A DNA stretch of 56,486 nt from Candidatus Microgenomates bacterium (GTDB taxonomy: Bacteria > Patescibacteriota > Microgenomatia > Daviesbacterales > UBA10151), in assembly GCA_016182045.1 (NCBI GenBank), contig JACOYE010000012.1:1-56486 (forward strand), written 5' to 3'. Positions 1-56,177 of the stretch are shown here, in pieces. The notes beneath the pieces were generated by a model. That model was not told where the DNA came from. It was given only the letters and a program-made list of their open reading frames with translations, and did no database searches. The number at the start of each line of letters is the position of its first letter. Positions within the stretch are counted from its first letter, which is position 1. Made by a program: the position numbers and the translations under genes.

Positions 1-626
1 CAGAATTTTACCTTGTAAATCCTCATGATCTGCATAAACTCCGGAATCAATTACTGCCACAAAGGTAGAAGAATTACCTTGGGAAATATCCCAGGCAGCT
101 GGGACTCCAATCTGTGGTGCAGATTCACCGCTATAAAATTTAATGCTGGGGTTGAGATTCCACTGGGCAGTAGTAAAAGCCGGATCATTTGGTTCAATCA
201 GCTCTTTCCCGATAAAGTTTGGTTCTGCATATTCTATCCTGGGATTTCTATTTAAAGCCTTAATTACTTTATCCTTGGCTTTTTCCGGAACTTTGGCTAC
301 TATTACCTCAATATTGGGGATGGTATCAATCTTAGTTAATCCATAAGCTTTTAAGGTATTATCCTTTATTTTGTCAGCTACTCCGCTTTTAAATTTCAAA
401 AGTATTTCATCAGGAACCTGGGGAGCTGGTTCTTGTTGGGGAAAAGAGCGGAAAATAACCTGTCTCTAAAAGTAGCTGATGAGGAAATAAGAATAAACAG
501 GATTATTCCTAAAGCTGCCAGTAATATTAAAAGTAAGGGAGGAATAATACCTGCCTCGCTCGCCTCGCTGCGAAACGGGCCGGCAGGCGGGCCTTTTTGG
601 GAAGTGGGTAGTTTAATAAATGGCAT
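1..626 (-). pseudogene. S8 subtilisin-like serine peptidase with pilin-like N-terminus, frameshifted near 440 and running off the window edge
   Basis: ATG at 626 gives MPFIKLPTSQKG..IIPPLLLILL..LFP, stopping at 396. The -1 frame from about 440 reads QQEPAPQVPDEILLKFKSG..IEYAEPNF..PNDP..QW..AAWDIS..VAVIDSGV..DHEDLQGKIL, i.e. a subtilase prodomain plus the catalytic Asp motif. Confidence 0.8.
550..591 (-). repeat. 42-nt GC-rich hairpin micro-insertion (CCCG foot)
   Basis: Minus strand CCCG-CCTGCC...GGCAGG. Removing it restores QKG|IIP in frame. Confidence 0.75.
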
Positions 627-630
627 ATTA

Positions 631-1083
631 TTATGGTGATAGCTGAACCACATCCAGGGGAGTTTCAGACATCTGGACAAGCTTACCGCCTTTTGGTTTT
701 TTCTGATAAACCTTGACTGTATAAGTGCCAGCTTCAGCAGTACCAAATGTAAAGCTCAAAGAACCAGAAGTACTGGTAAATCTGGTGTAAACATAGGTTG
801 ACTTGGGAGTTAAGATATTAATATAAGCATCGGCTGAAGGATAATACCCAGAACCAGAAGCAGAAACTAAGCTTCCACAACATTCTGCAGGATTGGGATC
901 TAAAGTAAGAGTGGCAGAAAAACTTTTTTGTGGAGGAGTTGCTTCAGAGGTAGGTTTTGGGTAGAGGGTTCCAAAAAGGTTTCCAAGAGGAGCAGTTTGG
1001 GCAAATATGATAAATGCTAAAAGTCCTAAGGCTGCAATAAGCAAAAAAATTATTGATGAAAATCCTTGTTGTTTTTTGAACAT
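631..1083 (-). CDS. secreted/membrane protein with pilin-like (class III) N-terminus and beta-rich domain
   Basis: MFKKQQG|FSSIIFLLIAALG hydrophobic helix; start moved to ATG 1083. Confidence 0.7.
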   Translation of the reverse strand: MFKKQQGFSSIIFLLIAALGLLAFIIFAQTAPLGNLFGTLYPKPTSEATPPQKSFSATLTLDPNPAECCGSLVSASGSGYYPSADAYINILTPKSTYVYTRFTSTSGSLSFTFGTAEAGTYTVKVYQKKPKGGKLVQMSETPLDVVQLSP

Positions 1084-1139
1084 GCTATATTTTAGTATGC
1101 ACATACTTTGTCTGCGTCTGTCAAGTGCCCCCAAAATTT

Positions 1140-2078
1140 CTAAAAGCGGTGAGCTTTGCGAGTTTTATGGTGTGGTTCTTTGGCCAGTGTCCCCAGATAT
1201 ACACCCATAGCTATCAATGATGCTCCTATCATAAATGATAAGGAAATTCTTTCTGCCAAAATGAAAACAGCTAAGGCTGCCGCTACAAATGGCTCAATGT
1301 ATTGAAAAAGATCTGCTCTAATTACATTAGTTCTAGCAAGTCCCCACTCAAAAAGAAAATAGGCAGAGATTGAAGATAGCATGGTCATATATAAAAGACC
1401 TAAAATTCCCAAAATGGTGATATTTGCACTCCAACTGGGATTTTGGATATACTCTGAGGCAGCCGGAATGAAAAAGGTTACAGCACCTGTTAAAAATGCT
1501 ATGGCAGTAATGGTCAGTGTGGAGTATTTTTTTAGCATCTGCTCGGAAAATACGGCCCCCCCCACAAATGATAATGCAGCCAGGATGATTAAAATATTAC
1601 CCAAAACCGTTTCCGAGGAATAAGTTCCGCTGATAATTTGAGGTAAGCCAATAATAACCAAAGCTCCCGCAAGTCCCATTAAAACTCCCAATAAGTTAAT
1701 CAAATATATTTTCTCTTTTAAATAAAGCCATCCCAAAAGCACACTGGATATGGGGATAATCAGGGTTAGGACAGAAGCATTAATGGCAGTAGTTCTGACT
1801 ATTCCTTCAAAGAAAAAGGCGATATTTAAGGTAATAATAAATATACCAATTGCCAAAAGCTTAGGAAGATCTTCCTTTTTAACACTAATTTTTTTTCTTT
1901 GCGCCCAAACAAAAGGGGCCAGCAGTAAACAGGCCAGAGAAAATCTTAGAAAAGCCAAAGATGATGGTGGAAATTCCTGTAAAGTAATTTTGGCCACCAC
2001 AAAAGTGGCTCCCCAGATCAGGTGAGCCACCACTAAGGCTATGTATGGAAAAGGTTTGGACAGAATTTGAGAAGACAT
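1140..2078 (-). CDS. DMT/EamA family transporter
   Basis: About 10 TM helices in two repeats; IWGATFV and LAFLRF motifs. Confidence 0.9.
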   Translation of the reverse strand: MSSQILSKPFPYIALVVAHLIWGATFVVAKITLQEFPPSSLAFLRFSLACLLLAPFVWAQRKKISVKKEDLPKLLAIGIFIITLNIAFFFEGIVRTTAINASVLTLIIPISSVLLGWLYLKEKIYLINLLGVLMGLAGALVIIGLPQIISGTYSSETVLGNILIILAALSFVGGAVFSEQMLKKYSTLTITAIAFLTGAVTFFIPAASEYIQNPSWSANITILGILGLLYMTMLSSISAYFLFEWGLARTNVIRADLFQYIEPFVAAALAVFILAERISLSFMIGASLIAMGVYLGTLAKEPHHKTRKAHRF

Positions 2079-2099
2079 TATTTAAGTATAAAGGGTAGG

Positions 2100-3026
2100 T
2101 CAGATTAATTCCAGGAGTCTGTCCAAACCAAAGGAAAAACCAACAGCAGGGATGTCTTTCTTGGCCCTTCGACTTCGCTCAGGGTAAATAAACATGCCTA
2201 TTAAGTTATCATATCTGCCACCGGCACCAACAGATAAGGAGGTTGGATTTTGATCTAGTTTGAGCTCAAAAATAGCGCCGGTGTAATAATCCAAACCGCG
2301 AGCTAGTGTTGGGTCGAATTTGAAATCAATACCCATCTCTAAAGAATATTTTTCTTTTAAGATATTAAATAATTGCTCAAGATTTTCAGTGGGTTTTTGG
2401 GATCTGATTTCATTAACTGTCTCCTTAGCCTTATCCGGTGATAGTCCACCACTAACTAACTCACTTATCACATCTTCCTCGCCGATTTTATTGATTTTAT
2501 CTATAGCTCTGACTGCTTCAGAAGGAAGTGAGGCAAAATTGGCTCTGTCATTAATGAGCATAACTGCATCTTCAAAGCCTAAATCTTTCATGCATTTAAT
2601 GGTTACTGCCACAATCAAGGCATCTTCTTTGGGATCAGATGAACCCACGCTATCAAAATCAAATTGGGTGAATTCACGCCACCTGCCTTTTTGGGGATTT
2701 TCACCGCGGAAGACCTGGCCAATTTGGTATCTTCTGAATGGTAGGGGAGGGTTGTAGGCTGCCACATACCGTGCAAGCGGAACAGTTAAGTCATAGCGTA
2801 ATGCCAGTTTTCTGCCGCCTCTATCTGTGAACTCATAAATTAACCTTTCTTCCTCCCCGTATTTACCCTTTAGCGTATCTGCAAACTCTATGGTAGGGGT
2901 TTCAATGGGGACAAAGCCATAGCCTTCCAGGACGCTGACAATAATATTTATTGCCTCACGTCTTTTCTTGGCCATATCGGGTTTTATATCCCTAAACCCC
3001 TTTGGTGTTGGCGGTGCTTTAAGCAT
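2100..3026 (-). CDS. hisS: histidine--tRNA ligase, catalytic domain only
   Basis: PKGFRD, LRYDLTVP, FRGENPQKGRWREFTQ, LARGLDYYTG, GGRYDNL, GFSFGLDRL; ends without the anticodon-binding domain. Confidence 0.9.
   Translation of the reverse strand: MLKAPPTPKGFRDIKPDMAKKRREAINIIVSVLEGYGFVPIETPTIEFADTLKGKYGEEERLIYEFTDRGGRKLALRYDLTVPLARYVAAYNPPLPFRRYQIGQVFRGENPQKGRWREFTQFDFDSVGSSDPKEDALIVAVTIKCMKDLGFEDAVMLINDRANFASLPSEAVRAIDKINKIGEEDVISELVSGGLSPDKAKETVNEIRSQKPTENLEQLFNILKEKYSLEMGIDFKFDPTLARGLDYYTGAIFELKLDQNPTSLSVGAGGRYDNLIGMFIYPERSRRAKKDIPAVGFSFGLDRLLELI
2165..2188 (-). repeat. 24-nt micro-insertion TTTA-CCC-TGAGCGAAGTCGAA-GGG in hisS
   Basis: Encodes the YPERSRR segment; removal gives GMFTKKDIPAVG. 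Confidence 0.9.
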
Positions 3027-3084: not shown

Positions 3085-3132
3085 CCTGCCCTGAGCGAAC
3101 CTGTGGTGATCGTAGCCGAACCAGTCGAAGGG
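3085..3132 (+). repeat. two nested 24-nt micro-insertions (outer 3085-3099 plus 3124-3132; inner 3100-3123)
   Basis: CCTG-CCC-TGAGCGAA[CCTG-TGG-TGATCGTAGCCGAA-CCA]GTCGAA-GGG. Confidence 0.9.
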
Positions 3133-4578: not shown

Positions 4579-5322
4579 TTACTTTTTCTTCCCAGAAGGT
4601 GTGGCTGATTTGGTGGTAACTTGAGCAGAGGGGGTGGCCACCTTTTTGAGTTTTATGATTCCGCCTTGGGAAATAACATAAACAAATCTTGCCACATATA
4701 TTTCATTTTTATTTTTGCTACCTACCACGATCACAAAATCGTTAAGCTTAATCTTTATATCAGGTTTGAAATTGACTGACACCGCCACATTTTTTAGTTC
4801 CCTGGTTTTTAAGGTAACAAGACTATCGGAGATAGAGATAACTTGGCCCCAAAGGTAAGTTGGTAGTTGGTCCGCCAGCTGGTGGATGGTAGTTGGTAGT
4901 AAGATAACCTTTTTGGCTGTTAAGACTCCTGTTTCATCAATGTCACCCAAAGCGGCCACAAAATCTTCTTCTGCCAAAGTTTTCAAAGACAATTTCTTGT
5001 TTTTGACATTACCTTCATAAATTGTATCTTGATTTAGAGTGACAATCTTTGGCCCGCCTCTGGTGGCTAAAGTTAAAGAAGTTTCAGATTTGGCTTTTAA
5101 GTTCCCTATGTAGGCCTTATTTTGCAATTTCCTGTTAACCTCAAGTTTTAATTTGGCAGCCTTAGAAGCAATCTCTTTTTTCAGCTCCTCTAATTTAGCC
5201 TTGATGTTAGCTGAGGGAGTGGAATCAGCAGCATGAGCAGTGGACAGGGTACAGGTTACAGTGAACAGGAAAGATAATATTAAACTGTAACCTAAAACCT
5301 GAAACCTGTAACATTTTCTCAT
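4579..5322 (-). CDS. secreted hypothetical protein (coiled coil plus two OB-like, DUF5666-like repeats)
   Basis: Signal peptide ending AHA, coiled coil, two beta repeats, ATPSA tail. Confidence 0.65.
   Translation of the reverse strand: MRKCYRFQVLGYSLILSFLFTVTCTLSTAHAADSTPSANIKAKLEELKKEIASKAAKLKLEVNRKLQNKAYIGNLKAKSETSLTLATRGGPKIVTLNQDTIYEGNVKNKKLSLKTLAEEDFVAALGDIDETGVLTAKKVILLPTTIHQLADQLPTYLWGQVISISDSLVTLKTRELKNVAVSVNFKPDIKIKLNDFVIVVGSKNKNEIYVARFVYVISQGGIIKLKKVATPSAQVTTKSATPSGKKK
4871..4882 (+). repeat. 12-nt micro-insertion TCCG-CCAGCTGG inside a TGGTAGT 7-mer array
   Basis: Removal restores TGGTAGT-TGGTGGA-TGGTAGT-TGGTAGT; same 12-mer in efp. Confidence 0.8.
5241..5312. repeat. inverted 7-mer arrays (NNNACAG x4 / CTRWAAC x4) within a signal-peptide coding region
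   Basis: tggacag ggtacag gttacag tgaacag ... ctgtaac ctaaaac ctgaaac ctgtaac. Confidence 0.75.
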
Positions 5323-7833: not shown

Positions 7834-8414
7834 GAAAGATAAGAATAATAAAATTTATTGACCTTTTTTTCAAAATCAGATAGTGTGCCGTTATTGACTA
7901 TTTTAAGATTGGCAAACTTACCCAAAATTAGGATTTTTTCCTCAGCTTTGGATTTTTCCTCTGCCATAAATTGGTCAAAAGTAAGCCCCACCTCTCCCAC
8001 CTTTTCTGATCTTTTCTTTAGCCTTTGGTATCTTAGTTTCTGATCAGCCGTGATATAGATTAGGATATGATGATCCATCCTTTTAACTAACTCCAGCTCC
8101 GTCTCACGTCTAATCCCGTCCAAGATAATTACCTCAGCAGTATCACCTTCTGCCGAGAATTTGGCAGCATTAGCCAAAGCGGTTTCTCCGAAAGTGGCGT
8201 TCATTGCAATAGACAGTTTTTGTAAGTTGGTTCTGGTTATAGGAAGATCCCAGATTATTAAAGTTTGAGCCAAAATATCAGAAAAGCGGATTTGGCGGAT
8301 AGTTAGCCTCTCGCCGTCATTGCGAGGCGAAGCCGAAGCAATCTCCTTCAAAAAATTTACAAACGTCTGTTTCCCACTCCCTTTTTCACCAATCAAGCCT
8401 AAAACTTTTTTCAT
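7821..8414 (-). CDS. dephospho-CoA kinase-like P-loop kinase
   Basis: MKKVLGLIGEKGSGKQT, ILDGIRR..E, R..RL..R, IVNNGT; start at ATG 8414 just after the tRNA. Confidence 0.8.
   Translation of the reverse strand: MKKVLGLIGEKGSGKQTFVNFLKEIASASPRNDGERLTIRQIRFSDILAQTLIIWDLPITRTNLQKLSIAMNATFGETALANAAKFSAEGDTAEVIILDGIRRETELELVKRMDHHILIYITADQKLRYQRLKKRSEKVGEVGLTFDQFMAEEKSKAEEKILILGKFANLKIVNNGTLSDFEKKVNKFYYSYLSQAA
8315..8344 (+). repeat. CGTC-tagged REP-like palindrome within the kinase gene
   Basis: CGTC-ATTGC-GAGGCGAAGCCGAA-GCAAT-CT; encodes EIASASPRND on the minus strand. Confidence 0.75.
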
Positions 8415-11508: not shown

Positions 11509-12084
11509 ATGGCATTAAATGTCACTGATTTAAGAAATGGAACTGTTTTTAAGGAAGGGAATAATATTTTTCAGGTCCTTTCCTATGATCATGTTAAGAT
11601 GGGCAGGGGATCTGGGAATGTTAAGGTCAAGGTTAAAAATTTAAAGACGGGGTCCATTACTGAAAAGTCTTTTATGACCGGGGCCAGAGTGGATGAGGCT
11701 GAGGTAGAAAAGAAAAAAGCTCAATTTTTATACAGGGAGGGGGATCCGCCAGCTGGCGGATTTAATTTCATGGATCCTTCCTCTTTTGAACAATTTTCCA
11801 TCCCTTCTCAAGCTTTAGGCGATCAGGTTAAATATTTAAAAGAGGGACTGGAAGTAACATTGATAGTTTCTGAGGATGAAGCATTAGGGTTGGAGCTTCC
11901 CATGAGCCTGGTTTATGAAATAGCTGAAACTGGACCCGGGGAAAAAGGCAATACTGTTTCTAATGTTTTTAAAGAAGCGACCCTAGATAATGGTCTGGTA
12001 GTTAAAGTACCTATGTTTATTGGTGTTGGGGAAAAGGTTAAAGTTGATACCAGGAGTGGGGAATATGTGGAGAGGGTTAAATAA
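11509..12084 (+). CDS. efp: elongation factor P
   Basis: DLRNG, HVKMGRG, QFLY..FMD, KEATLDNG..VKVPMFI..GE.VKVDTRSGEYVERV. Confidence 0.97.
   Translation: MALNVTDLRNGTVFKEGNNIFQVLSYDHVKMGRGSGNVKVKVKNLKTGSITEKSFMTGARVDEAEVEKKKAQFLYREGDPPAGGFNFMDPSSFEQFSIPSQALGDQVKYLKEGLEVTLIVSEDEALGLELPMSLVYEIAETGPGEKGNTVSNVFKEATLDNGLVVKVPMFIGVGEKVKVDTRSGEYVERVK
11745..11756 (+). repeat. 12-nt micro-insertion TCCG-CCAGCTGG in efp
   Basis: YREGDPPAGGFNFMD; removal gives the canonically spaced YREGDGFNFMD. Confidence 0.85.
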
Positions 12085-19114: not shown

Positions 19115-19930
19115 ATGGATTTCCCCAAGGTAATCTTTGAGGATGAGGACATTTTGGTTTTGGATAAGCCTCCTAATTTGGTGGTAGATCTTACTTTAGT
19201 GGATTGGTTGAGAGAAAACTATCATTCACTAGTGTATCATAGTAAGGTTGCTCGGCAGAGAAGGGGGGTGGTTCATAGGTTGGATAAAGATACTTCGGGA
19301 TTGTTGCTGGTCGCCAAGACTGATCAGGCTTTTGAAAATTTACAAGCCCAATTTAAGGAAAGAAAAATTAAAAAAGAATATCTGGCGCTGGTGCATGGGT
19401 TGGTAGAAAAGGCAGGTAGGGTGGAGGGGGCAATTGGTAGGAATCCAGTTAAACACGATAAGTTTAGTGTAATTTATGACGGAAGAGCAGCAGTCACGGA
19501 GTATGAACCTTTTGAAAGGTTACAGTTTACCCGTCAAAGACGAGGCTCGCCGAAGGCGGCAGGAGACAGGCCTTCGGCTCTGAGGCTCAGGCTCGAAGAG
19601 TTACAGGAAATTTTTCATGATTTTAATAAGATTCAGTTCAGAAAACTGTCCACTATCCACTACAACCTGTTCACTCTTTTAAAGTGTCAGCCACTGACTG
19701 GACGAACACACCAAATTAGGGTACATTTAAAATATATCGGGCACCCAATAGTGTCAGATGAAAAGTATGTTGGTCGTAAGATGTACAGGTTGGATAAAAG
19801 ATGGTGCCCAAGACAATTTTTGCATGCTGCAAAGATTGGTTTTTTCCATCCGGTTAGTGGAAAGTGGATGGAGGTGGGAAGTGAGCTACCGGAGGACCTA
19901 ATAGGAGTTTTAAAAATTTTTAATTTTTAA
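19115..19930 (+). CDS. RluA/RluD family pseudouridine synthase (no S4 domain) carrying several repeat insertions
   Basis: DKP, VHRLDKDTSG, K.YLALV, TGRTHQIRVH, QFLHA. Confidence 0.92.
   Translation: MDFPKVIFEDEDILVLDKPPNLVVDLTLVDWLRENYHSLVYHSKVARQRRGVVHRLDKDTSGLLLVAKTDQAFENLQAQFKERKIKKEYLALVHGLVEKAGRVEGAIGRNPVKHDKFSVIYDGRAAVTEYEPFERLQFTRQRRGSPKAAGDRPSALRLRLEELQEIFHDFNKIQFRKLSTIHYNLFTLLKCQPLTGRTHQIRVHLKYIGHPIVSDEKYVGRKMYRLDKRWCPRQFLHAAKIGFFHPVSGKWMEVGSELPEDLIGVLKIFNF
19218..19245. repeat. near-identical copy of the TrpR-like gene operator palindrome inside the pseudouridine synthase gene
   Basis: ACTATCATTCACTAGTGTATCATAGTAA versus 33749-33776; 26 of 28 identical. Confidence 0.85.
19530..19559 (+). 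repeat. 30-nt double-hairpin micro-insertion
   Basis: CCCGTC-AAA-GACG-AGGCT-CGCC-GAA-GGCGG; removal restores the NNNACAG period. Confidence 0.75.
19571..19600 (+). repeat. 30-nt hairpin micro-insertion
   Basis: CCTTCGGCTCTGAGGCTCAGGCTCGAAGAG; removing both 30-mers gives RLQFTGDRLQE. Confidence 0.75.
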
Positions 19931-22055: not shown

Positions 22056-23117
22056 ATGCCTTTAAAATCTGCCCCGATTAAATCGGGGTCTGCCCGGGCC
22101 AAAGCATCTGGTGGTTGGAAAGCCATGCAGTATCGCAGTAAGGTTAAAAAAAGGACCAAACTGGCTCTGATTGCTTTAGGATTGATTGTCATTCTTCTGG
22201 TCTTGGGCCAGCTGGTCAATTTAACTCGAATGCTCTTTAGTCCCTGGCAGGCGGAACTTTCCCCAAGAGACTACCTTTGGGATGACCACTTTAATATCAA
22301 TATACTGGTTTATACAAATCCCGTCTCGGTGTTTTCTTTTAACCCATCAGAGCAAAAAATTACCGTTATAAAAATTCCCGATCAAATTTATATGGAGGTT
22401 CCCGGCGGATTCGGCAATTGGCAAGTCAGGTCAATTTATCAGTTGGGTCAAACCACAAAAAGGGGAGGAAATACTCTTTTGAAACAATCATTGTCCTCTT
22501 TTTTGGGCATACCGATAGAGGGTGTTTTGGAGCCAACCGATGATTTAAGACAAAAGGGGGTGGAGGAGTTAATTGAGCTGATGCGTCAGAATCCCCTCAA
22601 TATATTTCTGCTGATCCCCAATTTAAAAACAGATCTTAAGTTATGGGAGTTGATACGGCTTAAATTTGCTCTTTGGGGTGTCAGGTTTGACAAAGTCAAA
22701 ATATTGGATCTTTTAGAACTTAATGTATTGGAAAGGCAAAGATTGGCAGACGGTTCCGAAGTTTTAACTGCGGATTTAATAAGAATAGATGGAATACTAT
22801 CTGATTTTGAGGATCCCCAAATAAAGAAAGAACACTTATCCGTGGCTGTTTTTAATGCCACAGACTACCCCCAGCTGGCCCAAAAGGCAGCTCGACTCAT
22901 TACTAATATGGGAGGAAATGTGATTATGGTGACAAATGCTCCTCAAAGATTAGATAAAACTAAAGTGGTTGGCGAGAATTCGGTCACCTTAAAAAGACTA
23001 GTTCAGATTTTTGGCTGTGACAATTGTGATAAAATTGAGCTTAAGGATTTGGGTTTGGATTCTTCTCGCGGCCAGATCAATTTATTTTTAGGAGAAGATT
23101 TCTACCAAAAAATTTAA
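22056..23117 (+). CDS. LytR/CpsA/Psr (LCP)-like protein with LytR_C domain
   Basis: N-terminal TM, IKIPD..Y..VPGG.G, FLGIPI, VAVFNAT..P.LA; start at ATG 22056. Confidence 0.75.
   Translation: MPLKSAPIKSGSARAKASGGWKAMQYRSKVKKRTKLALIALGLIVILLVLGQLVNLTRMLFSPWQAELSPRDYLWDDHFNINILVYTNPVSVFSFNPSEQKITVIKIPDQIYMEVPGGFGNWQVRSIYQLGQTTKRGGNTLLKQSLSSFLGIPIEGVLEPTDDLRQKGVEELIELMRQNPLNIFLLIPNLKTDLKLWELIRLKFALWGVRFDKVKILDLLELNVLERQRLADGSEVLTADLIRIDGILSDFEDPQIKKEHLSVAVFNATDYPQLAQKAARLITNMGGNVIMVTNAPQRLDKTKVVGENSVTLKRLVQIFGCDNCDKIELKDLGLDSSRGQINLFLGEDFYQKI
22068..22088 (+). repeat. 21-nt micro-insertion TCTG-CCCCGAT-TAA-ATCGGGG
   Basis: Removal gives MPLKSARAK. Confidence 0.75.
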
Positions 23118-34348: not shown

Positions 34349-35155
34349 ATGGCCAAAATTGATTTGCAAATTCCTTCTTTGGGGGATAAATTTATAGATT
34401 TAAGAGATAGTTTGTCGGGTGATGCTTATAAATGGAGCTTTGAGAGAGACCTTTCCTCAGTTAACTTGCTGGTTATACATCATTCAGGATCAGACGGACA
34501 AAATCCAAAAGATATAGCAGATTATCATATCAATACCAATAACTGGGGTGGAATTGGTTATCATTTTTTAGTCTCCAGCGATGGTTTGGTTTATTATGTG
34601 GGAGATATTTCAACTGCAAGGGCAAGCGTTTCAGGGTTAGATGAGCAGATTATAGGAATTGCTTTAATGGGCAATTTTGTCTCAGACAAGCAACCTAACG
34701 CAGAACAAATTGAGGCTACCAAAAAGCTTTGTGACTTTTTGATAAGCTATCCTGATCTTTCTAATATCAAATCATGGGAGTTTGTGGTAGGACACAAAGA
34801 TTTGCCTAATCAAAATACCAATTGTCCGGGCGATAATTGGGATGTTTGGAAAGGTAAATTGTATGGCGAAGGTGGAAATACTCAAGACACCATAAACTAT
34901 CAAAAAGATCAGATAGAAAATTTACAAGCAAGTTTGGCTTCAGTGACTGGTCAACTTTTAAATATGCAAGAAACTTTGGGGGAAAAAGAGATGCGGATCA
35001 ATCAATTAACAAACAAGCTGAACAACAAATCCGTGCAGAATGAGACAGTGAAAAGACAGGATTATACCTTGACTTTACTTCAAGCTTTATATAACCTATA
35101 TAAATTCATCTTTCTGCCCAGAAGGGGTAGCACCGATTCAATCGGTGTAGAATGA
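34349..35155 (+). CDS. N-acetylmuramoyl-L-alanine amidase (Amidase_2/PGRP) with C-terminal coiled coil
   Basis: VIHHS, WGGIGYHF, IGI.L.GNF, GHKD...T.CPG. Confidence 0.88.
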   Translation: MAKIDLQIPSLGDKFIDLRDSLSGDAYKWSFERDLSSVNLLVIHHSGSDGQNPKDIADYHINTNNWGGIGYHFLVSSDGLVYYVGDISTARASVSGLDEQIIGIALMGNFVSDKQPNAEQIEATKKLCDFLISYPDLSNIKSWEFVVGHKDLPNQNTNCPGDNWDVWKGKLYGEGGNTQDTINYQKDQIENLQASLASVTGQLLNMQETLGEKEMRINQLTNKLNNKSVQNETVKRQDYTLTLLQALYNLYKFIFLPRRGSTDSIGVE

Positions 35156-35648: not shown

Positions 35649-38123
35649 TTAAGTCCTGTCTGTTGACGAAACCACAGTGGCTGCGGCCACTTTTTCACCG
35701 GCGCGAACTCTCATCAAAATTACCCCTTGTGTTTGTCTTTGCAAAGTTGGGACTTCTCTTAGATTCATCTTAATCAGCTGTCCTTTATTGGACGTTAAAA
35801 CTAATGTATCGGTACTTTTATACACTGCTTGAGCAGTGACAATCGGCCCAGTTTTGAGGTTCACTTGGGCAGCTTTAACTCCTTGTCCTCCCCTGCCCTG
35901 TTTGCTCCAAGAAGAGAACTTGGTCTTTTTACCTAAACCATTTTCCATAATCACCAAAAGTTCATCATCATTGCTTTGGACAACATTTAAAGAAACGACC
36001 TCATCGCCTTTCGTAAGTTTAATTCCTCTTACCCCCGAGGTATCTCTATGGGTTGGTTTGACCCCAGTTTCTGAAAAACGGATTGACTTGCCCATCTTGG
36101 AAACGATAATAAGGTCATGTTTACCTGAGGTCAAACTTACCCAGCCCAACTGATCGTTAGCATCCAGTTTGATGGCCACCAAACCATTTTTTCTGATATT
36201 GACATATTCTTCCAAAGCGGTTTTTTTGACATTGCCCATCTTGGTACACATAAAGAAATATTTGGCACTGCCATTATGTTTATTGGTAGTCAGAACCGCC
36301 GTGATTTTTTCTCCCTGTTCAACATTGATTAGATTGACAATGGCCTGACCTTTGGCAGATCTTTGTGTCTCGGGAATTTCCCAGACCTTGATTTGAAAAA
36401 CCCTTCCCCTGTCTGTGAAGAAAAGAATGTTATCATGAGTCTGGGTATAAAAAATGTGGGAAACAGCATCTGTTTCTTTGGTGGAAATACCCATTACTCC
36501 TTTACCGCCTCGCTGTTGAGTTCTGAAAGAGTGGGGAGATTGTCTTTTGATATAACCGCCTTCGGTGATAGTGACAATTGTCACCTCATTGGGCACCAAG
36601 TCTTCTTCGGAAAACTCTCCCACCTTTTGTTTATAGACTCGGGTGCGTCTGTCATCGCCATACCTTCCCTTAATTTTTAAGAGCTCTTCTTTAATAACTT
36701 TGAGAATTTTCTCAGGGTGTGCCAATAAATCCTCAAGATAGGCAATAGTTTCACGAACCATCTTTAACTCATCTTCTATTTTTTGACGCTCCAAAGCTGC
36801 CAGTCTTCGAAGCTGCATATCCAAAATGGCCACTGCCTGAATTTCTGTTAGTTTAAACTTGGTCATTAAGTTTACTTTGGCCTGATCTGCATCCCTGCTT
36901 TTTTTAATGGTTTCAATGACACGATCGATATTATCAACTGCAATTTTTAACCCTTCCAAGATATGCTCTCTTGCCTTGGCTTCGCTTAGCTCAAATTCTG
37001 AGCGTCTTGTTACTATTTGCTGTCGGTGGCGAATAAACTCAGTTAAGATTTGTTTTAAGGTTAAAAGGTGAGGTACCCCATCAGACAGTGCCACAAGATT
37101 GACATTGAAAACAGACTGCATGGCAGTGTATTTGTAAAGATTATTTAAAATGGCTTTGGGTTTGGCATCCCTTTTTAGATCAAAAACGATCCTCACCATC
37201 TGTTTTCTGTCTGATTCGTCGCGCAGATCTGAGATACCTTCTAATTTTTTGTCTTTGACAAGATCGGCAATTCTGGCAATTAAGGTGGCTTTGTTAACTT
37301 GATATGGCAACTCTGAGACAATTATTTGCATTTTTCCCGCTCCGCCCGCGGAGCGGGGCGAGCCGGCAGAGCCTGATTCATCTATTTCAGTCTTAGCTCT
37401 CATCACAATCCTGCCTTTGCCGGTAGCATAGGCTGCCAGGATTTCGCTTTGATCGTAAATTGAACCCCCTGTTGGAAAATCGGGACCTTTTATAAACTGG
37501 ATTAGATCCTCAACAGTGACGTCTGGGTGGTCGATCATGTACACCAGCGCATCACAAACCTCTCCTAAATTATGGGGTGGAATTTGGGTGGCCATGCCAA
37601 CAGCAATCCCGGAGGCTCCATTCAGAAGTAGATTGGGTATGACCGAAGGTAGCAATACTGGCTCTTGAGTAGTGCCAGAATAATTGTCAATAAAATTTAC
37701 GGTGTTTTTACTAATGTCCCGAAGTAATTCATCAGCAATGCTAGAGAGCCTGGCTTCAGTGTAGCGCATGGCAGCTGGCGAGTCTCCATCAATTGAGCCA
37801 AAATTTCCCTGGCCGTCAATCAGCATATATCTTAGGGAAAAGTTTTGAGCCATCCTGACCATAGCTTCATAAACAGGAGCATCACCGTGTGGATGAAAAT
37901 TTTTCAATACCTCTCCCACTACAGCTGCGCTCTTTTGATATCTTGAGGTATGGTGTAGACTCTGCTGGTGCATGGCATAAATAATGCGTCTTTGGACTGG
38001 TTTTAGGCCGTCTCGGACATCTGGAAGAGCGCGGGAAACAATCACGGACATGGCATAGTCCAAATAGGACCTCTGCATCTCTTCTATGATTGGAGCTGGC
38101 TGAATTTTACCGATATTACTCAT
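35649..38123 (-). CDS. gyrA: DNA gyrase subunit A
   Basis: DGLKPVQRR, HPHGD, AAMRYTE, GyrA-box QQRGGKG. Confidence 0.98.
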   Translation of the reverse strand: MSNIGKIQPAPIIEEMQRSYLDYAMSVIVSRALPDVRDGLKPVQRRIIYAMHQQSLHHTSRYQKSAAVVGEVLKNFHPHGDAPVYEAMVRMAQNFSLRYMLIDGQGNFGSIDGDSPAAMRYTEARLSSIADELLRDISKNTVNFIDNYSGTTQEPVLLPSVIPNLLLNGASGIAVGMATQIPPHNLGEVCDALVYMIDHPDVTVEDLIQFIKGPDFPTGGSIYDQSEILAAYATGKGRIVMRAKTEIDESGSAGSPRSAGGAGKMQIIVSELPYQVNKATLIARIADLVKDKKLEGISDLRDESDRKQMVRIVFDLKRDAKPKAILNNLYKYTAMQSVFNVNLVALSDGVPHLLTLKQILTEFIRHRQQIVTRRSEFELSEAKAREHILEGLKIAVDNIDRVIETIKKSRDADQAKVNLMTKFKLTEIQAVAILDMQLRRLAALERQKIEDELKMVRETIAYLEDLLAHPEKILKVIKEELLKIKGRYGDDRRTRVYKQKVGEFSEEDLVPNEVTIVTITEGGYIKRQSPHSFRTQQRGGKGVMGISTKETDAVSHIFYTQTHDNILFFTDRGRVFQIKVWEIPETQRSAKGQAIVNLINVEQGEKITAVLTTNKHNGSAKYFFMCTKMGNVKKTALEEYVNIRKNGLVAIKLDANDQLGWVSLTSGKHDLIIVSKMGKSIRFSETGVKPTHRDTSGVRGIKLTKGDEVVSLNVVQSNDDELLVIMENGLGKKTKFSSWSKQGRGGQGVKAAQVNLKTGPIVTAQAVYKSTDTLVLTSNKGQLIKMNLREVPTLQRQTQGVILMRVRAGEKVAAATVVSSTDRT
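37336..37371 (+). repeat. 36-nt branched hairpin micro-insertion (CCCG foot) in gyrA
   Basis: CCCG-CTCCGCC-CGCGGAGCGGGGCGAGCC-GGCAGAG; adds SAGSPRSAGGAG; removal gives IDESGKMQI. Confidence 0.8.
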
Positions 38124-40036: not shown

Positions 40037-40138
40037 TGTTGGCTAAAATAACACATAGCTTAATGCAATTGCAATTATTCATTATATAAAATTTACACAC
40101 TTACACCTCGGAGGTGTTATATACTTAACACCTAGGGT

Positions 40139-41227: not shown

Positions 41228-42339
41228 ACAACAACTCTTCTGATTGGGGCAGCAAGGTGTACCAGTATATCATAAGGAATGGTTTGACAAATTTTGGCCG
41301 CATTTTCTATTGAGTTTGGATCTTTGGGATTGTTGGAATAAACTAAAACTTTCTGTCCAATATATGGATTGGCCACTTTAGATAAATCTACGGTAGCAAT
41401 ATTCATACTGACTCGGCCGATGATGGGACAAACTACTCCCTCAACTAAAACATATCCTTTATTAGAAAGTCTTCTGTCCACCCCATCATAATAGCCAATT
41501 GGTAAAATACCCATTAGCATGTCTTTTTTGGCAGTAAATGTTCCGCCATAGCCTACCCTGTCTCCTCTTCTTAATTTTTTAATCTGAATAATTTTACTTT
41601 TAAGAGTAAGGACTGGTTTTAAATTTGGATCCGATGAGATGCCATATAGTGCAAGTCCGATCCTGGCCATATTTAGCCTGCAACCTGGAAGGTTGAAAGC
41701 TAAACCATCAGAGTTTTGGATATGTATCCATTGTGGGTAGACTTTATACTTTTTGCAGATAGTGAGAGCCTTCTTAAAATTTTTAATTTGAATTCTATTT
41801 AGTGGATCATTTTTATCATCAGTCGATGCCAGATGAGACATCAATCCTTCTATTTTTAAATTTTTAAATTGTTTCATTGCTGTCAGAAAATTTGGTAAAT
41901 CTTCTAAGCTGATGCCTTCCCTGTGCATGCCGGTATCAACAAAAATATGGACTCCACATCCAGGCTGGTACTTGCTTAAAATTTTTACTGTTTCTATATC
42001 ATAAACAGCATAGGAAAATGGCAGTTTTTTCACCATATAATTTTGTGGATCGGTGTAGCCTATGATTAAAATAGGAGTCTTTATATGAACTTTAAGTAAC
42101 TCATAAGCCTCATAAAGTGAGTCCACACAAAAGAATGGTGCACCCAGTGGATCCAAAATCTTTGCCAACTCAATTATTCCATGCCCATAAGCATTACTTT
42201 TAATAACAGGAGCAATTTTAATTCTTCTGTTTAAGGAAGAAAGGTATTTGAAATTATTGATTAGGTTTGTCTTAGAAATCTCAATCAGATTTAAGGTCCG
42301 ATAATCTTTTTTAAAAATCTTAAGTAGAGTATCTAGCAT
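41224..42339 (-). CDS. alr: alanine racemase
   Basis: VIKSNAYGHG, DTGMHREG, VGYGG, PIGYYDG, GRVSM. Confidence 0.95.
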   Translation of the reverse strand: MLDTLLKIFKKDYRTLNLIEISKTNLINNFKYLSSLNRRIKIAPVIKSNAYGHGIIELAKILDPLGAPFFCVDSLYEAYELLKVHIKTPILIIGYTDPQNYMVKKLPFSYAVYDIETVKILSKYQPGCGVHIFVDTGMHREGISLEDLPNFLTAMKQFKNLKIEGLMSHLASTDDKNDPLNRIQIKNFKKALTICKKYKVYPQWIHIQNSDGLAFNLPGCRLNMARIGLALYGISSDPNLKPVLTLKSKIIQIKKLRRGDRVGYGGTFTAKKDMLMGILPIGYYDGVDRRLSNKGYVLVEGVVCPIIGRVSMNIATVDLSKVANPYIGQKVLVYSNNPKDPNSIENAAKICQTIPYDILVHLAAPIRRVVV

Positions 42340-43004: not shown

Positions 43005-44255
43005 ATGATGATTCTTGAAGAAGTTAGGGAAAAATATCCCGAGTTTATATATGAGGGTTTTGAGATAAAGTATGAAGGGGAAAGTTTAATAATCAATTTT
43101 GATTTTAAAGTTTCTGGGGATTTTACCTTCAGACCAAAAATCGTTTTCCCAAACGTATCCCCGCATTCTAAGTGGGAAGGTAGACTGGATAACTTAATTT
43201 TTAATTTGGGAATGGTTGAGCTTTTAAGCTACTGGAAAGCTGTTTGCTCTCCGCAAATTGTAATCAAAGCAGGATATTTAAGTAAGGAGCAAATTAAGTT
43301 TTGGAAAAAACTTTTATTAAAGGGATTGGGAGAATTTTTTTATAATAATAAAATAGATTTTACAAAAAAAGATTTGGTGGAGTTTACGATACAACCTTCG
43401 AGGTTACAGGCTAAAGTTGATGCGTCTGAACAACTCTTAAAAGAAAGAGATCTAATATTGATTGGAGGAGGTAAAGATTCTGCTGTTACTTTGGAACAAA
43501 TCAGTAAGTCCGGAAAAGAGTTTAACTGCCTAATGTTAAATCCCACTAAGGCTGTCTTAGCTATCGCAAAGATAAGTGGTTGTAAAAATCCGATTATTAT
43601 TAAAAGAACAATAGATCCAAAACTTCTGGAGCTAAATAAAAAAGGTTATCTTAATGGCCATACCCCATTTTCAGCATACCTTGCTTTTTTGGGAACACTT
43701 GCGGGAGTACTTTACGATTACAAAAACATTGTGGTTTCTAATGAGGTCTCATCTGATGAAGAAAATATCTTATGGATGGGTCAGGAAATAAACCATCAGT
43801 ATTCTAAGACTTCTGAATTTGAAAAAGATTTTAGAAGTTACTCCGAAAAATATTTAACAGCTTCTACAAATTATTTCAGTTTTTTAAGGGATAAAGGAGA
43901 GCTGGAAATATCCAGGCTTTTTGCCAGGATGCCAAAATATCACAAGCTTTTTAGAAGCTGCAACAAAGGTTCAAAGCAAGGAGTATGGTGTGGAGAATGT
44001 CCAAAATGTATTTCTACTTATCTTACACTCTATCCTTTTTTAGGGAGCGAAACACAAAAAATATTTGGTAAAGATTTATTAAGCGATGAAAGTTTAATTC
44101 CCATTGTCAAACAATTACTCAGAGAGAATAATGTGGCAAAACCATTTGAATGTGTGGCAACCGTTGCGGAGATAAAAAATGCCATTTCTTTGGGAAGAGA
44201 AAGAGCAGAAAAAGAGGGTGGAGAAATTCCAAAGGTTTTACGGATTAATGTATGA
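43005..44255 (+). CDS. murL: UDP-MurNAc-L-Ala-L-Glu epimerase
   Basis: SYWKA, GGGKDS PP-loop, NGHTPFSA, SNE.S, NHQYSK, F.SCN, WCGECPKC, KPFECV; coupled to murD. Confidence 0.85.
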   Translation: MMILEEVREKYPEFIYEGFEIKYEGESLIINFDFKVSGDFTFRPKIVFPNVSPHSKWEGRLDNLIFNLGMVELLSYWKAVCSPQIVIKAGYLSKEQIKFWKKLLLKGLGEFFYNNKIDFTKKDLVEFTIQPSRLQAKVDASEQLLKERDLILIGGGKDSAVTLEQISKSGKEFNCLMLNPTKAVLAIAKISGCKNPIIIKRTIDPKLLELNKKGYLNGHTPFSAYLAFLGTLAGVLYDYKNIVVSNEVSSDEENILWMGQEINHQYSKTSEFEKDFRSYSEKYLTASTNYFSFLRDKGELEISRLFARMPKYHKLFRSCNKGSKQGVWCGECPKCISTYLTLYPFLGSETQKIFGKDLLSDESLIPIVKQLLRENNVAKPFECVATVAEIKNAISLGRERAEKEGGEIPKVLRINV

Positions 44256-45460: not shown

Positions 45461-46740
45461 TCCGTATCTCCAGCACTCATAAAGAAAACTATATCTCCAT
45501 CTTTAATTTCCGGTTTTAGTTTATCTAAAGTTTGGTTTGTGTTTCCTATGTAAATGACGGATTCCTTATTGATTGCCTTCACCAGTTGTTTGCTTGTAAT
45601 TAGTCCAGTATCCATTTCTCTTGATGGATAAATGTCCATCACAAAAGTTTTATCTAATGGAAGATTTTTGAAAACTTGGACAAAATCATTAAATAAAGCT
45701 TTGGTTCTACTAAACATGTGGGGTTGATAAATTAAAATAATTCTTTGGTTGGGAAATTTTTGTCTGGCTGCTTCCATAGTGACTTTAATTTCTGTTGGAT
45801 GATGGCCAAAATCGCTATAAATTTCTGCACCTTTAAATTTACCAATATACTCAAACCTTCTTCCTACTCCAGTGTAATTGGATAAACTTTTTTGGATAAT
45901 CTGTGGGTTAAGTCTCAAGATCAGCCCCACTTGATATGCAGCGGAAGCATTCCATTTGTTAAATTCCCCAGGAATTTGTAAAGAAAAATCTATAAGATAT
46001 TTAGAATAATCTATAATCGAATGCACAGACCTGGTCTGTACATTCGAAGTTTGTTTTACTACAGGATCTGAGAGATTAGCAATGATTGTCCCTTTTGTTT
46101 GTAGTAAAAACTTTTGGAAGCTACTTTTTACTGCCTCAAGATTTTTAAAATACTCAGGATGATCCATTTCTATATTGGTGACAACAGAAATATCTGGGGT
46201 AATTGCTAAAAAGTTATCATTAAACTCATCTGCCTCAATGACAAAGTAGTTCCGATCGGAAGTAGTTTGTTCTGAAAGGCGGTAGTTTGTGCCCCACTTA
46301 GGATTAATTGCCCCCAGCAAAACTGTGGGATCTAAATTAGCATCCTCCAAAAGCTGGCCAATCATGGCAGTGGTGGTGGTTTTGCCGTGAGTACCTGCAA
46401 CAGCAATAACAAACTTATCTTTGGTCAAATACTCCCCCACAAACTGCTGCCAAGTTAAAACTGGAATATTTTTTTTCTTGGCTTCCACTAATTCTGGATT
46501 ATCCGGATCCAAAGAAAAAATAGCCGGGGTAACTGCCAGGATATCCACGCTGTAACCTTCGAGGTTGCAATCTAGATGTTTAGAGTCGTGGCCTTTGGAT
46601 AGTTGGGATTTTTTAAAATGGGTAGTAAATTCATTATGCGGTTCAAGATCACAACCAGTTATTTCAAAACCTTGGGCTTGGGCAATAGCAGCTGCAGCCG
46701 ATGCCCCACTCCCACCTATTCCTAAAAAATGAACTTTCAT
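45424..46740 (-). CDS. murC: UDP-MurNAc--L-alanine ligase
   Basis: GIGGSG, AGTHGKTTT, EADE, GVGRRFE, DFGHHPTE, QPH.FSRT. Confidence 0.93.
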   Translation of the reverse strand: MKVHFLGIGGSGASAAAAIAQAQGFEITGCDLEPHNEFTTHFKKSQLSKGHDSKHLDCNLEGYSVDILAVTPAIFSLDPDNPELVEAKKKNIPVLTWQQFVGEYLTKDKFVIAVAGTHGKTTTTAMIGQLLEDANLDPTVLLGAINPKWGTNYRLSEQTTSDRNYFVIEADEFNDNFLAITPDISVVTNIEMDHPEYFKNLEAVKSSFQKFLLQTKGTIIANLSDPVVKQTSNVQTRSVHSIIDYSKYLIDFSLQIPGEFNKWNASAAYQVGLILRLNPQIIQKSLSNYTGVGRRFEYIGKFKGAEIYSDFGHHPTEIKVTMEAARQKFPNQRIILIYQPHMFSRTKALFNDFVQVFKNLPLDKTFVMDIYPSREMDTGLITSKQLVKAINKESVIYIGNTNQTLDKLKPEIKDGDIVFFMSAGDTDYLAKKLTSSLN

Positions 46741-47899: not shown

Positions 47900-49852
<1,953 letters not shown>

Positions 49853-54578: not shown

Positions 54579-54616
54579 TTAATTTTCAAGTAACAATTTT
54601 CAATTTATAATCGCTA

Positions 54617-54692
54617 GCAGAAAACCCCGCCATCTTATGGCGGGGATGAATGCCTGAAGCGATTACAGTCTTCCGCGGGTTGGTGGTATACT
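54617..54692 (+). mobile_element. IS200/IS605-family-like left-end remnant with promoter
   Basis: GCAGAAAA-CCCCGCCAT-CTT-ATGGCGGGG-ATGAATGC subterminal hairpin, then extended -10 TGGTATACT; no transposase follows. Confidence 0.6.
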
Positions 54693-54704
54693 GAGGTTGG
54701 GTTA

Positions 54705-55256
54705 GGTTTTACCTTGGTAGAACTTTTGGTAGTTATTGCAATTATTGCCATTTTGGCAGCGGTAGTGGTACTTATTATAAATCCACTTGAGTTAACCAGA
54801 AGAACCCGTGATTCAGCCAGACTTTCAGATTTAGCCAGTTTGCAACAGGCCATTAACGTGGCTGTTCAAGAGGCAACCGATACCGGAGAAGCCATTCTTT
54901 GTACCGGTGGTTCTTATCCTTGTGGTGGTTCTACGGGCGCTGGAAGAAGTGGAGGTAGCGGCGCAGGAACCAGAAATTCAAATGGTACCGGTTGGGTGAA
55001 GGTTAATTTGAGTTCCCAACAAAGCGTATCCGTGCCAACTTTACCGGTTGACCCGCTTAATAATGACACCTATCATTACACCTATTGTGCTGATAATGAT
55101 GCCTGGGAAATTAATGCTGTTTTAGAATCAGTTAAAGAAATAGGTAGGATGGCCAACGATGGCGGTGATGAGAATGCTCAAGATACAACTGGACGATATG
55201 AAGTGGGGTCTAATCTGACTCTAATTACTTCAGGTGGTACGCCTTGTGCATACTAA
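54705..55256 (+). pseudogene. type IV pilin, likely the major pilin, lacking start codon and leader
   Basis: G|FTLVELLVVIAIIAILAA begins at 54705; no in-frame ATG/GTG/TTG between TAG 54615 and the Gly. Confidence 0.7.
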
Positions 55257-55262
55257 TTTGGC

Positions 55263-56177
55263 ATGGTCATTACGGGATTTATATTGGGAACTATCTTAGG
55301 TAGTTTTGTCAAGGCCCTGGCCGATCGGAGTTTAAGAAACGGCACATTTTGGGGAAGGTCGTATTGCCCACACTGTAAAAAGATTTTGCAGTGGTACGAC
55401 CTTCTTCCTATTCTGTCTTATATTTTCCTCAAAGGTAGGTGTAGATATTGTGGAGATAAAATTGGCATGGAGTATTTGGTGGTGGAAGTGGGGATGGGAG
55501 TTTTGATAGGATTTCTATTTTGGCAACAGTTTAATAATTTTCAATCCTTCGACTTCGCTCAGGACAAGTTTTCAATTTTTAATTTTCAATCTTCAATTTT
55601 TATTTTAGATTTACTGTACAAGATCTTCTTTATTAGTACTCTGGCTGTTTTATTTTTAACTGATCTGAAAAAGATGTTTATTCCGGACAGAATTACTCTG
55701 CCGGCAATTGGGATTAGTATAACTTTTATAATCGTTATAACAGTTATAAAAATTATCTATCTTTATAACTACCTTTCCCAAACTGTTTTGGGTCGCTTGC
55801 TTCTTCCTCCACACAGTGATTATTTCTTAAGGCATGCCTATTACGCTGCACAGCCTTTTTTAGGATCTTTGCTGATGGGTCTTTTAATAGGAGGATTTTT
55901 TATGACCCTTATTATCATTACTAAAGGTAAAGGCATGGGAGGGGGGGATGTTAAGCTGGGAGCCTTAATGGGTTTGGGTTTGGGTTTCCCCAATGCATTA
56001 GTTGCCACCATGCTGGCATTTTTATTGGGAGCAGGAGTGGCAATAGTCCTAATGGTGGCGGGTAAAAAAAGATTTGGTCAGTCCATTCCCTTTGGACCGT
56101 TTTTGGTTTTGGGAAGCTTAATTGCCCTATTTTGGGGAGAAAGGATAATTAATTGGTATCTTTATTTATCAATGTAG
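55263..56177 (+). CDS. pilD: prepilin peptidase
   Basis: GSF, RSYCPHC, P..SY..L.GRCRYC, TDL, GMGGGDVKL, IPFGPFL. Confidence 0.95.
   Translation: MVITGFILGTILGSFVKALADRSLRNGTFWGRSYCPHCKKILQWYDLLPILSYIFLKGRCRYCGDKIGMEYLVVEVGMGVLIGFLFWQQFNNFQSFDFAQDKFSIFNFQSSIFILDLLYKIFFISTLAVLFLTDLKKMFIPDRITLPAIGISITFIIVITVIKIIYLYNYLSQTVLGRLLLPPHSDYFLRHAYYAAQPFLGSLLMGLLIGGFFMTLIIITKGKGMGGGDVKLGALMGLGLGFPNALVATMLAFLLGAGVAIVLMVAGKKRFGQSIPFGPFLVLGSLIALFWGERIINWYLYLSM
55545..55568 (-). repeat. 24-nt micro-insertion CTTG-TCC-TGAGCGAAGTCGAA-GGA within a TTTTCAA 7-mer array in pilD
   Basis: Encodes SFDFAQDK; removal restores TTTTCAA-TTTTCAA-TTTTTAA-TTTTCAA-TCTTCAA. Confidence 0.9.

Follow-up and report, generated by a model that had tools for sequence, protein, structure and literature searches.

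The window analysed here is the whole of contig JACOYE010000012.1, 56,486 nucleotides (nt) read on the forward strand, from a Candidatus Microgenomates bacterium (assembly GCA_016182045.1; 905,223 bases in 24 contigs, 38.8% G+C, 92% complete). Short GC-rich hairpins and palindromes are scattered along it, many of them inside genes. The original prediction, made from the letters of the window, read twelve of these stretches as one family of footed-hairpin micro-insertions colonising essential genes in frame, and all twelve stretches are present where it placed them. Nine lie in long open reading frames (ORFs) of recognisable genes, namely those for histidyl-tRNA synthetase (HisRS, in the catalytic domain), a DUF5666-like protein whose assignment falls marginally below the Pfam cut-off, elongation factor EF-P, a PseudoU_synth_2/RluD-like pseudouridine synthase, a LytR_C protein, YebC, GyrA and a prepilin peptidase. 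The remaining three (550–591, 3085–3132 and 26840–26863) are intergenic; the short ORFs that overlap them, including one of 79 residues at 26840–26863, match no Pfam family. We use the letters A–L for repeat families defined by genome-wide counts of repeated words and collection of their copies, G000 for this genome (in which the window is contig C13) and G001, G008, G015, G018, G021 and so on for its relatives. The twelve copies are as follows.

550–591, forward strand: family E-related composite, intergenic, with an outer stem CCTGCC/GGCAGG around a GCTCGCCTCGCTGCGAA-type core
2165–2188, reverse strand: family A 24-nt unit in hisS, with foot TTTA, a stem of 4 base pairs (bp) and a 12-nt loop
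3085–3132, forward strand: two nested family A units, intergenic, the outer at 3085–3099 plus 3124–3132 and the inner at 3100–3123
4871–4886, no strand assigned: family B 16-nt palindrome with one mismatch in the DUF5666-like gene, net +12 nt, read HQLA
11745–11760, no strand assigned: family B perfect palindrome TCCGCCAGCTGGCGGA in the EF-P gene, net +12 nt, read PPAG
19530–19559, forward strand: first 30-nt GC-rich insert in the RluD-like pseudouridine synthase gene, placed by orthologue codon alignment
19571–19600, forward strand: second 30-nt insert, a hairpin, in the same RluD-like gene, placed by orthologue codon alignment
22068–22092, no strand assigned: family G 17-nt palindrome CCCCGATTAAATCGGGG near the N-terminus of the LytR_C gene, the palindrome at 22072–22088 lying between duplicated TCTG, net 21 nt
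25159–25182, reverse strand: family A 24-nt unit in yebC, +24 nt, encoding PFDFAQGK
26840–26863, forward strand: family A 24-nt unit with foot CCTG, intergenic
37336–37365, reverse strand: family E hairpin in gyrA, net +30 nt, read GSPRSAGGA plus one further residue
55545–55568, reverse strand: family A 24-nt unit with foot CTTG in the prepilin peptidase gene pilD, encoding SFDFAQDK

Alignment of the open frames of each host gene with orthologues from 15–29 genomes of the same family or class identified all nine intragenic copies as lineage-specific in-frame insertions rather than ancestral residues. The 24 nt in hisS, encoding IYPERSRR, are absent from 27 of the 28 relatives that span the site, and the remaining one has another hairpin there. 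Orthologues of the DUF5666-like protein are four residues shorter in 14 of 15 cases, the efp insert is missing from 28 of 29 relatives, and the LytR_C insert from 15 of 15. In the RluD-like gene, two 30-nt blocks flank a retained ancestral GGAGACAGG, and the 20 added residues are absent from 29 of 29 relatives, as had been proposed. For yebC, nothing comparable is present in 25 of 29 relatives, and the other four hold different GC-rich inserts in that loop; in gyrA, two of 29 relatives have a 27-nt core in common with the insert, whose net length is 30 nt and not the 36 nt originally given, so that the end placed at 37371 overshoots. The 24 nt in pilD lie in a variable linker of the alignment. 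In an AlphaFold model of EF-P the insert lies in a coil linking two predicted strands; built from 10 sequences, with a mean pLDDT of 57 and residues 66–133 below 50, this model is not usable evidence.

Metagenomic contigs also support the inserts. In the Logan contigs of four groundwater runs of one study, one of which is possibly the source of the assembly, sequences cross the inserts at 22068, 25159, 26840 and 37336 with zero differences, and loose contig ends fall at 25159, the left boundary of the yebC unit. As contigs from all four runs cross them unchanged, the inserts are not an assembly artefact. The contigs do break at the rluD hairpins, where records end at 19509–19596 and none spans 19600–19708, and this is the point that could be raised in favour of an assembly or binning error. 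Such an error is nevertheless scarcely conceivable given the agreement of the four-run contigs, the long ORFs that stay open through the inserts, and the occurrence of the families in 39 other genomes. Many other contigs match only about 19568–19600 and diverge outside it. These dozens of matches confined to the 30-nt rluD hairpin imply that many other organisms or loci in the samples carry it. Summed contig depth at 19164–19827 was 20–30 times that of neighbouring bins in all four runs. One contig that skips 19530–19600, with nine other letters in their place, was considered as an empty-site variant and rejected; its matches are short and piecewise and it belongs to a relative.

The proposal of a single family does not hold, because at least five families are represented among the twelve copies: a 24-nt footed unit, a 16-nt palindrome, a 27–30-nt hairpin, a 17-nt palindrome with a 4-nt duplication, and the rluD pair. 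Genome-wide we counted 22 copies of family A, 17 of B, 39 of C, 16 of D, 6 of E, 9 of G, 13 of H and 12 of L, with further families F, I, J and K; family A rises from 22 copies with a long seed to 32–35 with a looser one. Censuses of repeats by GC islands and by low-threshold k-mers were discarded for excess noise. In the window, Rfam at its gathering threshold returned tRNA-Leu alone, leaving the hairpins outside any known RNA family.

The 24 nt of a family A unit are a hairpin of 20 nt and the 4 nt that follow it; the hairpin has a 4-bp stem, and its 12-nt loop, TCGACTTCGCTC, is conserved. Its feet are CCTG, TTTA and CTTG, so the predicted anatomy of a tetranucleotide foot plus hairpin stands for this family, although it does not extend to families B, E and G. 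Between the hisS and yebC copies the match is perfect over exactly 24 nt and ends on both sides. Three stem positions outside the T-A pair are complementary in 29–30 of 35 copies with three to four pair types each, while the fourth position pairs at chance level. Judged by this covariation in sequence, the 4-bp stem is real though thermodynamically negligible; as free DNA the 24-nt units fold no better than shuffled sequences (z of 0.26, 0.72 and -0.16), and the same is true of the composite at 550–591 (z -0.39), which has related cores elsewhere in the genome. Better folding than in shuffled sequences is confined to the palindromes of 16 nt and 17 nt, with z values of -3.1 and -5.5. At 3085–3132 the loop of one unit is split at its exact midpoint by a whole second unit of 24 nt (foot CCTG and hairpin), and the same nesting position recurs at three other sites in the genome and in the leaders of GIY-YIG nuclease genes in other genomes, described below.

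Family B is the 16-nt perfect palindrome of the efp and DUF5666-like copies. In it and in the gyrA hairpin the YYYR letters taken for a foot belong to the paired stem. The stem of family E covaries among copies, CGCTTCGC/GCGAAGCG in some and CGCTCCGC/GCGGAGCG in others. Family G behaves differently. An exact 4-nt direct repeat surrounds its 17-nt palindrome in six of nine copies (0.04 expected), and at its copy in secA the five orthologues, each 21 nt shorter, have the duplicated letters just once. The TCTG “foot” at 22068 is thus one arm of a duplication, giving 17+4 = 21 nt. The statement that there is no consistent target-site duplication therefore fails for family G, with its 4 nt, and stands for the others: a genome scan for 3–5-nt duplications found none in families A, L, B, E, I, D, C, H, F and K. 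Families C and H are GTCAT-tagged hairpins, often in inverted pairs, and the loop of family H is the same as that of family A.

The families extend well beyond the window. By a crude ORF call that spans 93% of the genome, 18 of 19 copies of family B, all six of E, seven of nine of G and 23 of 32 of A fall within ORFs. This intragenic share is roughly what random placement predicts, and the repeats are not excluded from genes. Other hosts include ribosomal protein L1, triosephosphate isomerase, the F1 ATPase alpha subunit (AtpA), SecA, ribonucleotide reductase, a RecF/SMC-like protein and YceG, and codon alignments with up to five close genomes give net gains of 21 nt in L1, 9 in triosephosphate isomerase, 27 in AtpA and 21 in SecA. 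Relatives have their own GC-rich hairpin inserts elsewhere in these genes, and families A, B, C, D, G and I are present in loci of other genera and families.

Family B is stop-free in every frame, yet 15 of 16 copies in ORFs of at least 150 residues are read PPxGG (one chance P-loop match is omitted from the count), and this near-uniformity points to translation and selective filtering. Family E is invariably read SPR(S/F)AGG, whereas for family A both frame and strand vary among copies, giving PFDFAQGK, YPERSRR or PSTSLR. That all lengths are multiples of three is correct for the net inserts in genes; as a property of the element it fails for family B, where net lengths vary by gene (+9, +12, +12 and +21), so the multiple of three is a trait of the surviving genic copies. 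The broader claim of dispersed non-autonomous units that add residues to proteins is supported, with 3–20 residues added.

The best overall explanation, which we regard as probable, is that the window’s repeats fall into several families with no relation to one another, all of them short, dispersed hairpins or palindromes and selfish DNA of the same kind as repetitive extragenic palindromes (REPs) and the SRM repeats discussed below. Copies would be made in trans on single-stranded DNA (ssDNA) and would land anywhere, including in genes and in the loops of earlier copies. With ~90% of the genome coding, the genic copies would be survivors, those that keep the frame, are free of stops and fall in tolerant loops or linkers, and they would be read in frame as small Gly/Pro/Ala/Ser/Arg-rich peptides. 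Such survivor filtering would leave net lengths that are multiples of three. Family G would use a different route, with a 4-nt staggered cut of the target.

The preferred frames and the strong conservation of inserts between genera might instead mean that the inserts persist through some benefit to the host, whether as loops in the protein or as structures in mRNA or DNA (for example translation pauses, or termination or replication signals), so that their spread would be adaptive rather than selfish; the intergenic copies at 550–591 and 3085–3132 do lie just downstream of genes. We regard this as very improbable, since most orthologues do without the inserts, the host genes are functionally unrelated, and one and the same family A unit is read in differing frames and strands (PFDFAQGK and YPERSRR).

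Some inserts occur at the same site in genomes that are not sisters. In a tree of three proteins (FastTree, SH-like supports), G018 is the sister of G000 (0.999) and G008 lies elsewhere, grouped with G017 (0.907). The efp insert is nevertheless common, letter for letter, to G000 and G008 only, the gyrA core to G021 and G008, and the yebC unit to the distant G015, and in each case the sister G018 is without it. The shared inserts are 93–100% identical in DNA; whole genes and 90-nt flanks are 67–80% identical, and flank similarity is no higher in sharing than in non-sharing pairs. Boundaries differ between lineages, with +24 versus +21 nt in yebC and +30 versus +27 nt in gyrA. Two readings of this sharing remain: repeated entry into one tolerant loop, or old inserts kept at consensus with many precise losses. 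Judged by their sequences, the shared inserts count as support for a possible constraint beyond coding.

Such sharing would also be accounted for if the repeats were not transposed at all and were host signals for DNA uptake or recombination, similar to the NTS repeats of Neisseria, spread by transformation and homologous recombination. Inserts far better conserved than their flanks fit this idea, as does the abundance of hairpin sequences in many organisms of the samples, seen in the depth at 19164–19827; the NTS/Ssn system modulates transformation, according to the accessible part of PMC11893778. We consider spread as host signals quite unlikely. The flanks of sharing pairs are no closer than those of other pairs and the boundaries differ between lineages, while nesting of whole units and the 4-nt duplication mark insertion, and several unrelated families behave alike.

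The original prediction found no mobiliser gene in the window, and we likewise detected no candidate there. It linked the repeats to HUH (Y1) enzymes, and a single foot-plus-hairpin family mobilised in trans by a HUH transposase of the REP-associated tyrosine transposase (RAYT) or IS200-IS605 kind is the alternative with the most obvious enzyme. The genome encodes three RAYT-like Y1_Tnp genes above the Pfam cut-off, with HUH and Tyr motifs in their translations, and such genes are present in 33 of 40 related genomes at one to thirteen each. Absence of target duplication in most families would suit a HUH enzyme, insertion into hairpin loops suits an ssDNA mechanism, and family D palindromes both flank RAYT-like genes in two relatives and sit in ORFs here. 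However, the palindromes that flank the 32 RAYT-like loci examined belong to families F, D or J; copies of B, E and G turned up in none of the 32, and a copy of A/L type lies within ~350 nt of the gene in only one. RAYT-like genes thus carry palindromes other than those of the predicted family. Nor did a search with one query detect a RAYT-like gene in 120 hairpin loci from other phyla, among those listed by the scan described below. The GTAG tag is absent from the families of the twelve copies, family G duplicates its target, at least five families are involved, and the NCBIfam REP_Tyr_transpos model scores 38.6 and 60.5 against a cut-off of 80. Mobilisation of the window’s repeats by a RAYT-like enzyme therefore seems unlikely to us; the RAYT-like Y1 enzymes would serve other palindromes. 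The 92%-complete genome yielded no TnpB (PF07282) and no DDE_Tnp_1 (PF01609), and PF00665 (rve) gave a sub-threshold 17.7 bits in an ORF without a Pfam family.

Small GIY-YIG nuclease genes show a closer association with the repeats. Seven are present in the genome, with products of 83–100 residues and one truncated to 42, and such genes occur in 24 of 25 related genomes. Atlas matches of the small GIY-YIG proteins were to generic GIY-YIG clusters only. A repeat copy of family A, L, B, G, C or H lies within 200 nt of six of the seven, versus 156 of 1029 ORF calls and none of the three RAYT-like genes. An A/L-type hairpin is found 65–180 nt upstream of the GIY-YIG ORF at seven of 26 loci of relatives and at two loci here, and in three genera the stretch from the 3′ end of a tRNA to the GIY-YIG start codon is one conserved leader of nested A-type hairpins. 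A tRNA gene lies within ~300 nt of the small GIY-YIG gene at 20 of 32 loci, seven of them tRNA-Met(CAT). These loci (on contigs C6, C9, C11, C14 and C23 of G000, and in relatives) look like mobile cassettes that target tRNA genes. On C14, the sequence of the tRNA 3′ end occurs again past the GIY-YIG gene, a layout like that of an integration site. At C23:28340–28420 a tRNA 5′ fragment lies upstream of the GIY-YIG gene, with a family G palindrome and its 4-nt duplication in the D-loop region, and the only intact tRNA that ARAGORN calls at this locus is a tRNA-Arg on the opposite side of the gene.

A scan for the family A/L core as a 14-base pattern, with one genome per species, places the footed hairpin in a wider context. 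Some 9,000 matches are expected by chance, so that only internal features of the matches were used. Among the matches listed (at least 139, in at least 120 loci) many phyla are represented. The loop fillers of the 139 listed are non-random (AA in 37, AG in 33, TCC in 12, TTC in 9), and the stems are extended and complementary in 105; the 3′ tails are drawn from the small set seen in this genome. Matches in many phyla with non-random fillers, extended stems and shared tails imply that the footed hairpin belongs to a very widespread superfamily.

The published system closest to this arrangement is Ssn, described by Chenal et al. 2025 (PMC11893778). In the accessible part of that paper, Ssn are single-domain GIY-YIG proteins of ~94 residues whose genes are flanked by short hairpin repeats, termed SRM (NTS in Neisseria), with a conserved oriented upstream tag; Ssn cuts only ssDNA, just upstream of the hairpin, and the authors call the architecture insertion sequence-like and treat repeat expansion as an open question. 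Our loci are similar in having small single-domain GIY-YIG genes (~80–100 residues, seven here) and hairpin repeats which, like the 20–50-nt SRM of many phyla in the part of the paper available, are found around the nuclease gene and bear a conserved, oriented tag adjoining the stem, in an insertion sequence-like layout. They differ in that most copies of B, E and G and over half of A are in ORFs, compared with 2% intragenic for NTS in N. meningitidis as given in that text, that family A conserves its loop and not its stem, and that the cassettes are tRNA-linked. The published SRM pattern has seven matches in the genome against about two in simulations, five of them near-canonical NTS. These five, with a GTCAT tag, a 7–8-bp stem and a GAAA-type loop, lie at C3:17868, C11:63163, C11:~120880, C17:135264 and C17:~25039, and none adjoins a GIY-YIG gene.

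Comparison at the sequence level shows the footed 24-nt hairpin to be a member of a superfamily built like the repeats that accompany Ssn, and to form the leader of putative tRNA-linked small GIY-YIG cassettes. From gene neighbourhood and this published analogue, we infer that an Ssn-like small GIY-YIG nuclease is the best candidate mobiliser of the footed 24-nt family. That this nuclease actually nicks and spreads the family is a tentative suggestion, which we would sooner doubt than accept.

In-frame palindromes in genes have precedents. In the available portions of PMC10969869 and PMC3733652, Rickettsia palindromic elements (RPEs) are ~150 bp and occur in 44 Rickettsia genes (PMC10969869), with RPE-4 and RPE-6 as shorter forms (both sources). 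Going by the same texts, RPEs resemble the inserts described here in being in-frame palindromes in unrelated housekeeping genes of a small genome that add peptides, with no known transposase linked to them. The differences are that RPEs belong to an alphaproteobacterium and measure ~100–150 bp with a conserved peptide, whereas the present inserts come from another phylum, fall into several families, one with a 4-nt duplication, and have net lengths of 9–30 nt, or 60 nt for the rluD double insert. As far as the accessible text of Di Nocera et al. 2013 (PMC3733652) goes, intragenic REPs are known in several species, including in tRNA synthetase and pseudouridine synthase genes; REPs lie at about one site in two Xanthomonas recB genes; a GTAG tetranucleotide tag defines RAYT-linked REPs; and CGTC-tagged repeats, short RPEs included, occur without a dedicated transposase. 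Our repeats resemble the REP/RAYT system as short GC-rich multicopy hairpins, with inverted pairs in family C and RAYT-like genes that have their own palindromes. They differ in that the in-gene families are not those flanking RAYT-like genes, that the intragenic share is far higher than for the mostly extragenic REPs, and that units are as small as 16–24 nt. Family G alone shares features with miniature inverted-repeat transposable elements, having two 8-nt arms and a 4-nt target duplication. Mobile GC clusters in fungal mitochondrial genomes are GC-rich hairpins that invade an AT-rich compact genome, coding regions included; they differ in their organelle context, and the likeness is one of general description.

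Since intragenic REPs and RPEs are already known, the repeats of the window are an extreme variant of these. Our literature search, biased towards open-access articles and without coverage of supplements, found no description of such inserts in the candidate phyla radiation (CPR, Patescibacteria), nor any paper containing the motif words; intragenic copies, or genomes from the CPR, may be among the entries of additional file 3 of PMC3733652 and of the Supplementary Data of PMC11893778.

Several observations weigh against explaining the repeats as selfish elements spread in trans, with a small GIY-YIG nuclease as mobiliser of one family. The same-site inserts of non-sister genomes exceed what random insertion and filtering alone explain. 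Neither presence/absence variants nor transposition events were seen in the contigs of the four runs of one study, a source that drops rare variants. The published SRM pattern fits none of the twelve copies, and in the accessible part of PMC11893778 the spreading of its repeats by Ssn is a hypothesis only. One of the GIY-YIG proteins has UPF0213 proteins (1ZG2, 1YWL) as its best solved relatives, and hairpins beside GIY-YIG genes could be a mere pile-up in scarce non-coding stretches. For the 4-nt duplication of family G, two DDE families gave no candidate and we propose no enzyme. Atlas matches of the small GIY-YIG proteins were to generic GIY-YIG clusters only.

Three further copies in the window were absent from the original list.

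8314–8345, forward strand: family C GTCAT-tagged hairpin, between tRNA-Leu and an AAA-kinase-like ORF or in the predicted N-terminus of that ORF
35133–35145, no strand assigned: family G-related palindrome with a CCGATTCAATCGG core, at the 3′ end of ORF 34349–35155
40104–40116, no strand assigned: family D palindrome CACCTCGGAGGTG, intergenic

The palindrome at 40104–40116 is one that also flanks RAYT-like genes in two relatives. Elsewhere in the genome 13-nt palindromes form pairs, CACCTCCGAGGTG / CACCTCGGAGGTG, 23–35 nt apart and mostly in ORFs, with inner sequence that differs from pair to pair (C1:20852–20900, C1:24061–24121, C11:4936–4985, C11:22977–23025 and C17:136174–136222), and G001 and G009 have these palindromes on both sides of RAYT-like genes. 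Another hairpin family, CAACCTTCGAGGTTG then CAGGCTAAA, has 12 genome copies, all in ORFs and on either strand; its copies in the window are at 41681–41695, 43392–43406 and 46553–46567, in a low-GC, surface-polysaccharide-like part. A tandem run of GGTGGGA-type heptamers occupies 49336–49368 within ORF 47900–49846.

Two host genes have other features of their own. HisRS of this genome (2100–3044) and of the eight genomes nearest to it has ~300–355 residues, compared with 400–450 in others, and the short form apparently has no C-terminal anticodon-binding domain; ORF 1140–2078 beside hisS is an EamA transporter and not the absent part. The gyrA frames of G006, G007, G009 and G002 reach 1178–1303 residues, and the match breaks into parts near query positions 120 and 200, a pattern that suggests intein-like insertions; a smaller interruption near residue 200 is seen in many more relatives.

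If selfish hairpins are indeed the explanation, they colonise the most conserved proteins of a minimal genome as well as its scarce intergenic DNA, in a second lineage independent of Rickettsia. The repeats would account for many odd GC-rich peptide segments in predicted proteins, which is relevant to annotation, alignment and structure prediction. The footed hairpin and the tRNA-linked small GIY-YIG cassette offer a concrete candidate substrate–enzyme pair for Ssn outside Neisseria, and family G with its 4-nt duplication and the recurrent hits in the same loops are further features of note. A bolder and rather doubtful reading is that the 17–24-nt units are the smallest known mobile elements, spread by Ssn-like nucleases on tRNA-linked cassettes and repeatedly entering the same surface loops (EF-P, GyrA, YebC, AtpA, L1 and SecA) in separate genera. 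If that were true, they would be a standing source of variation in protein length and would give the Ssn family a role in repeat propagation.

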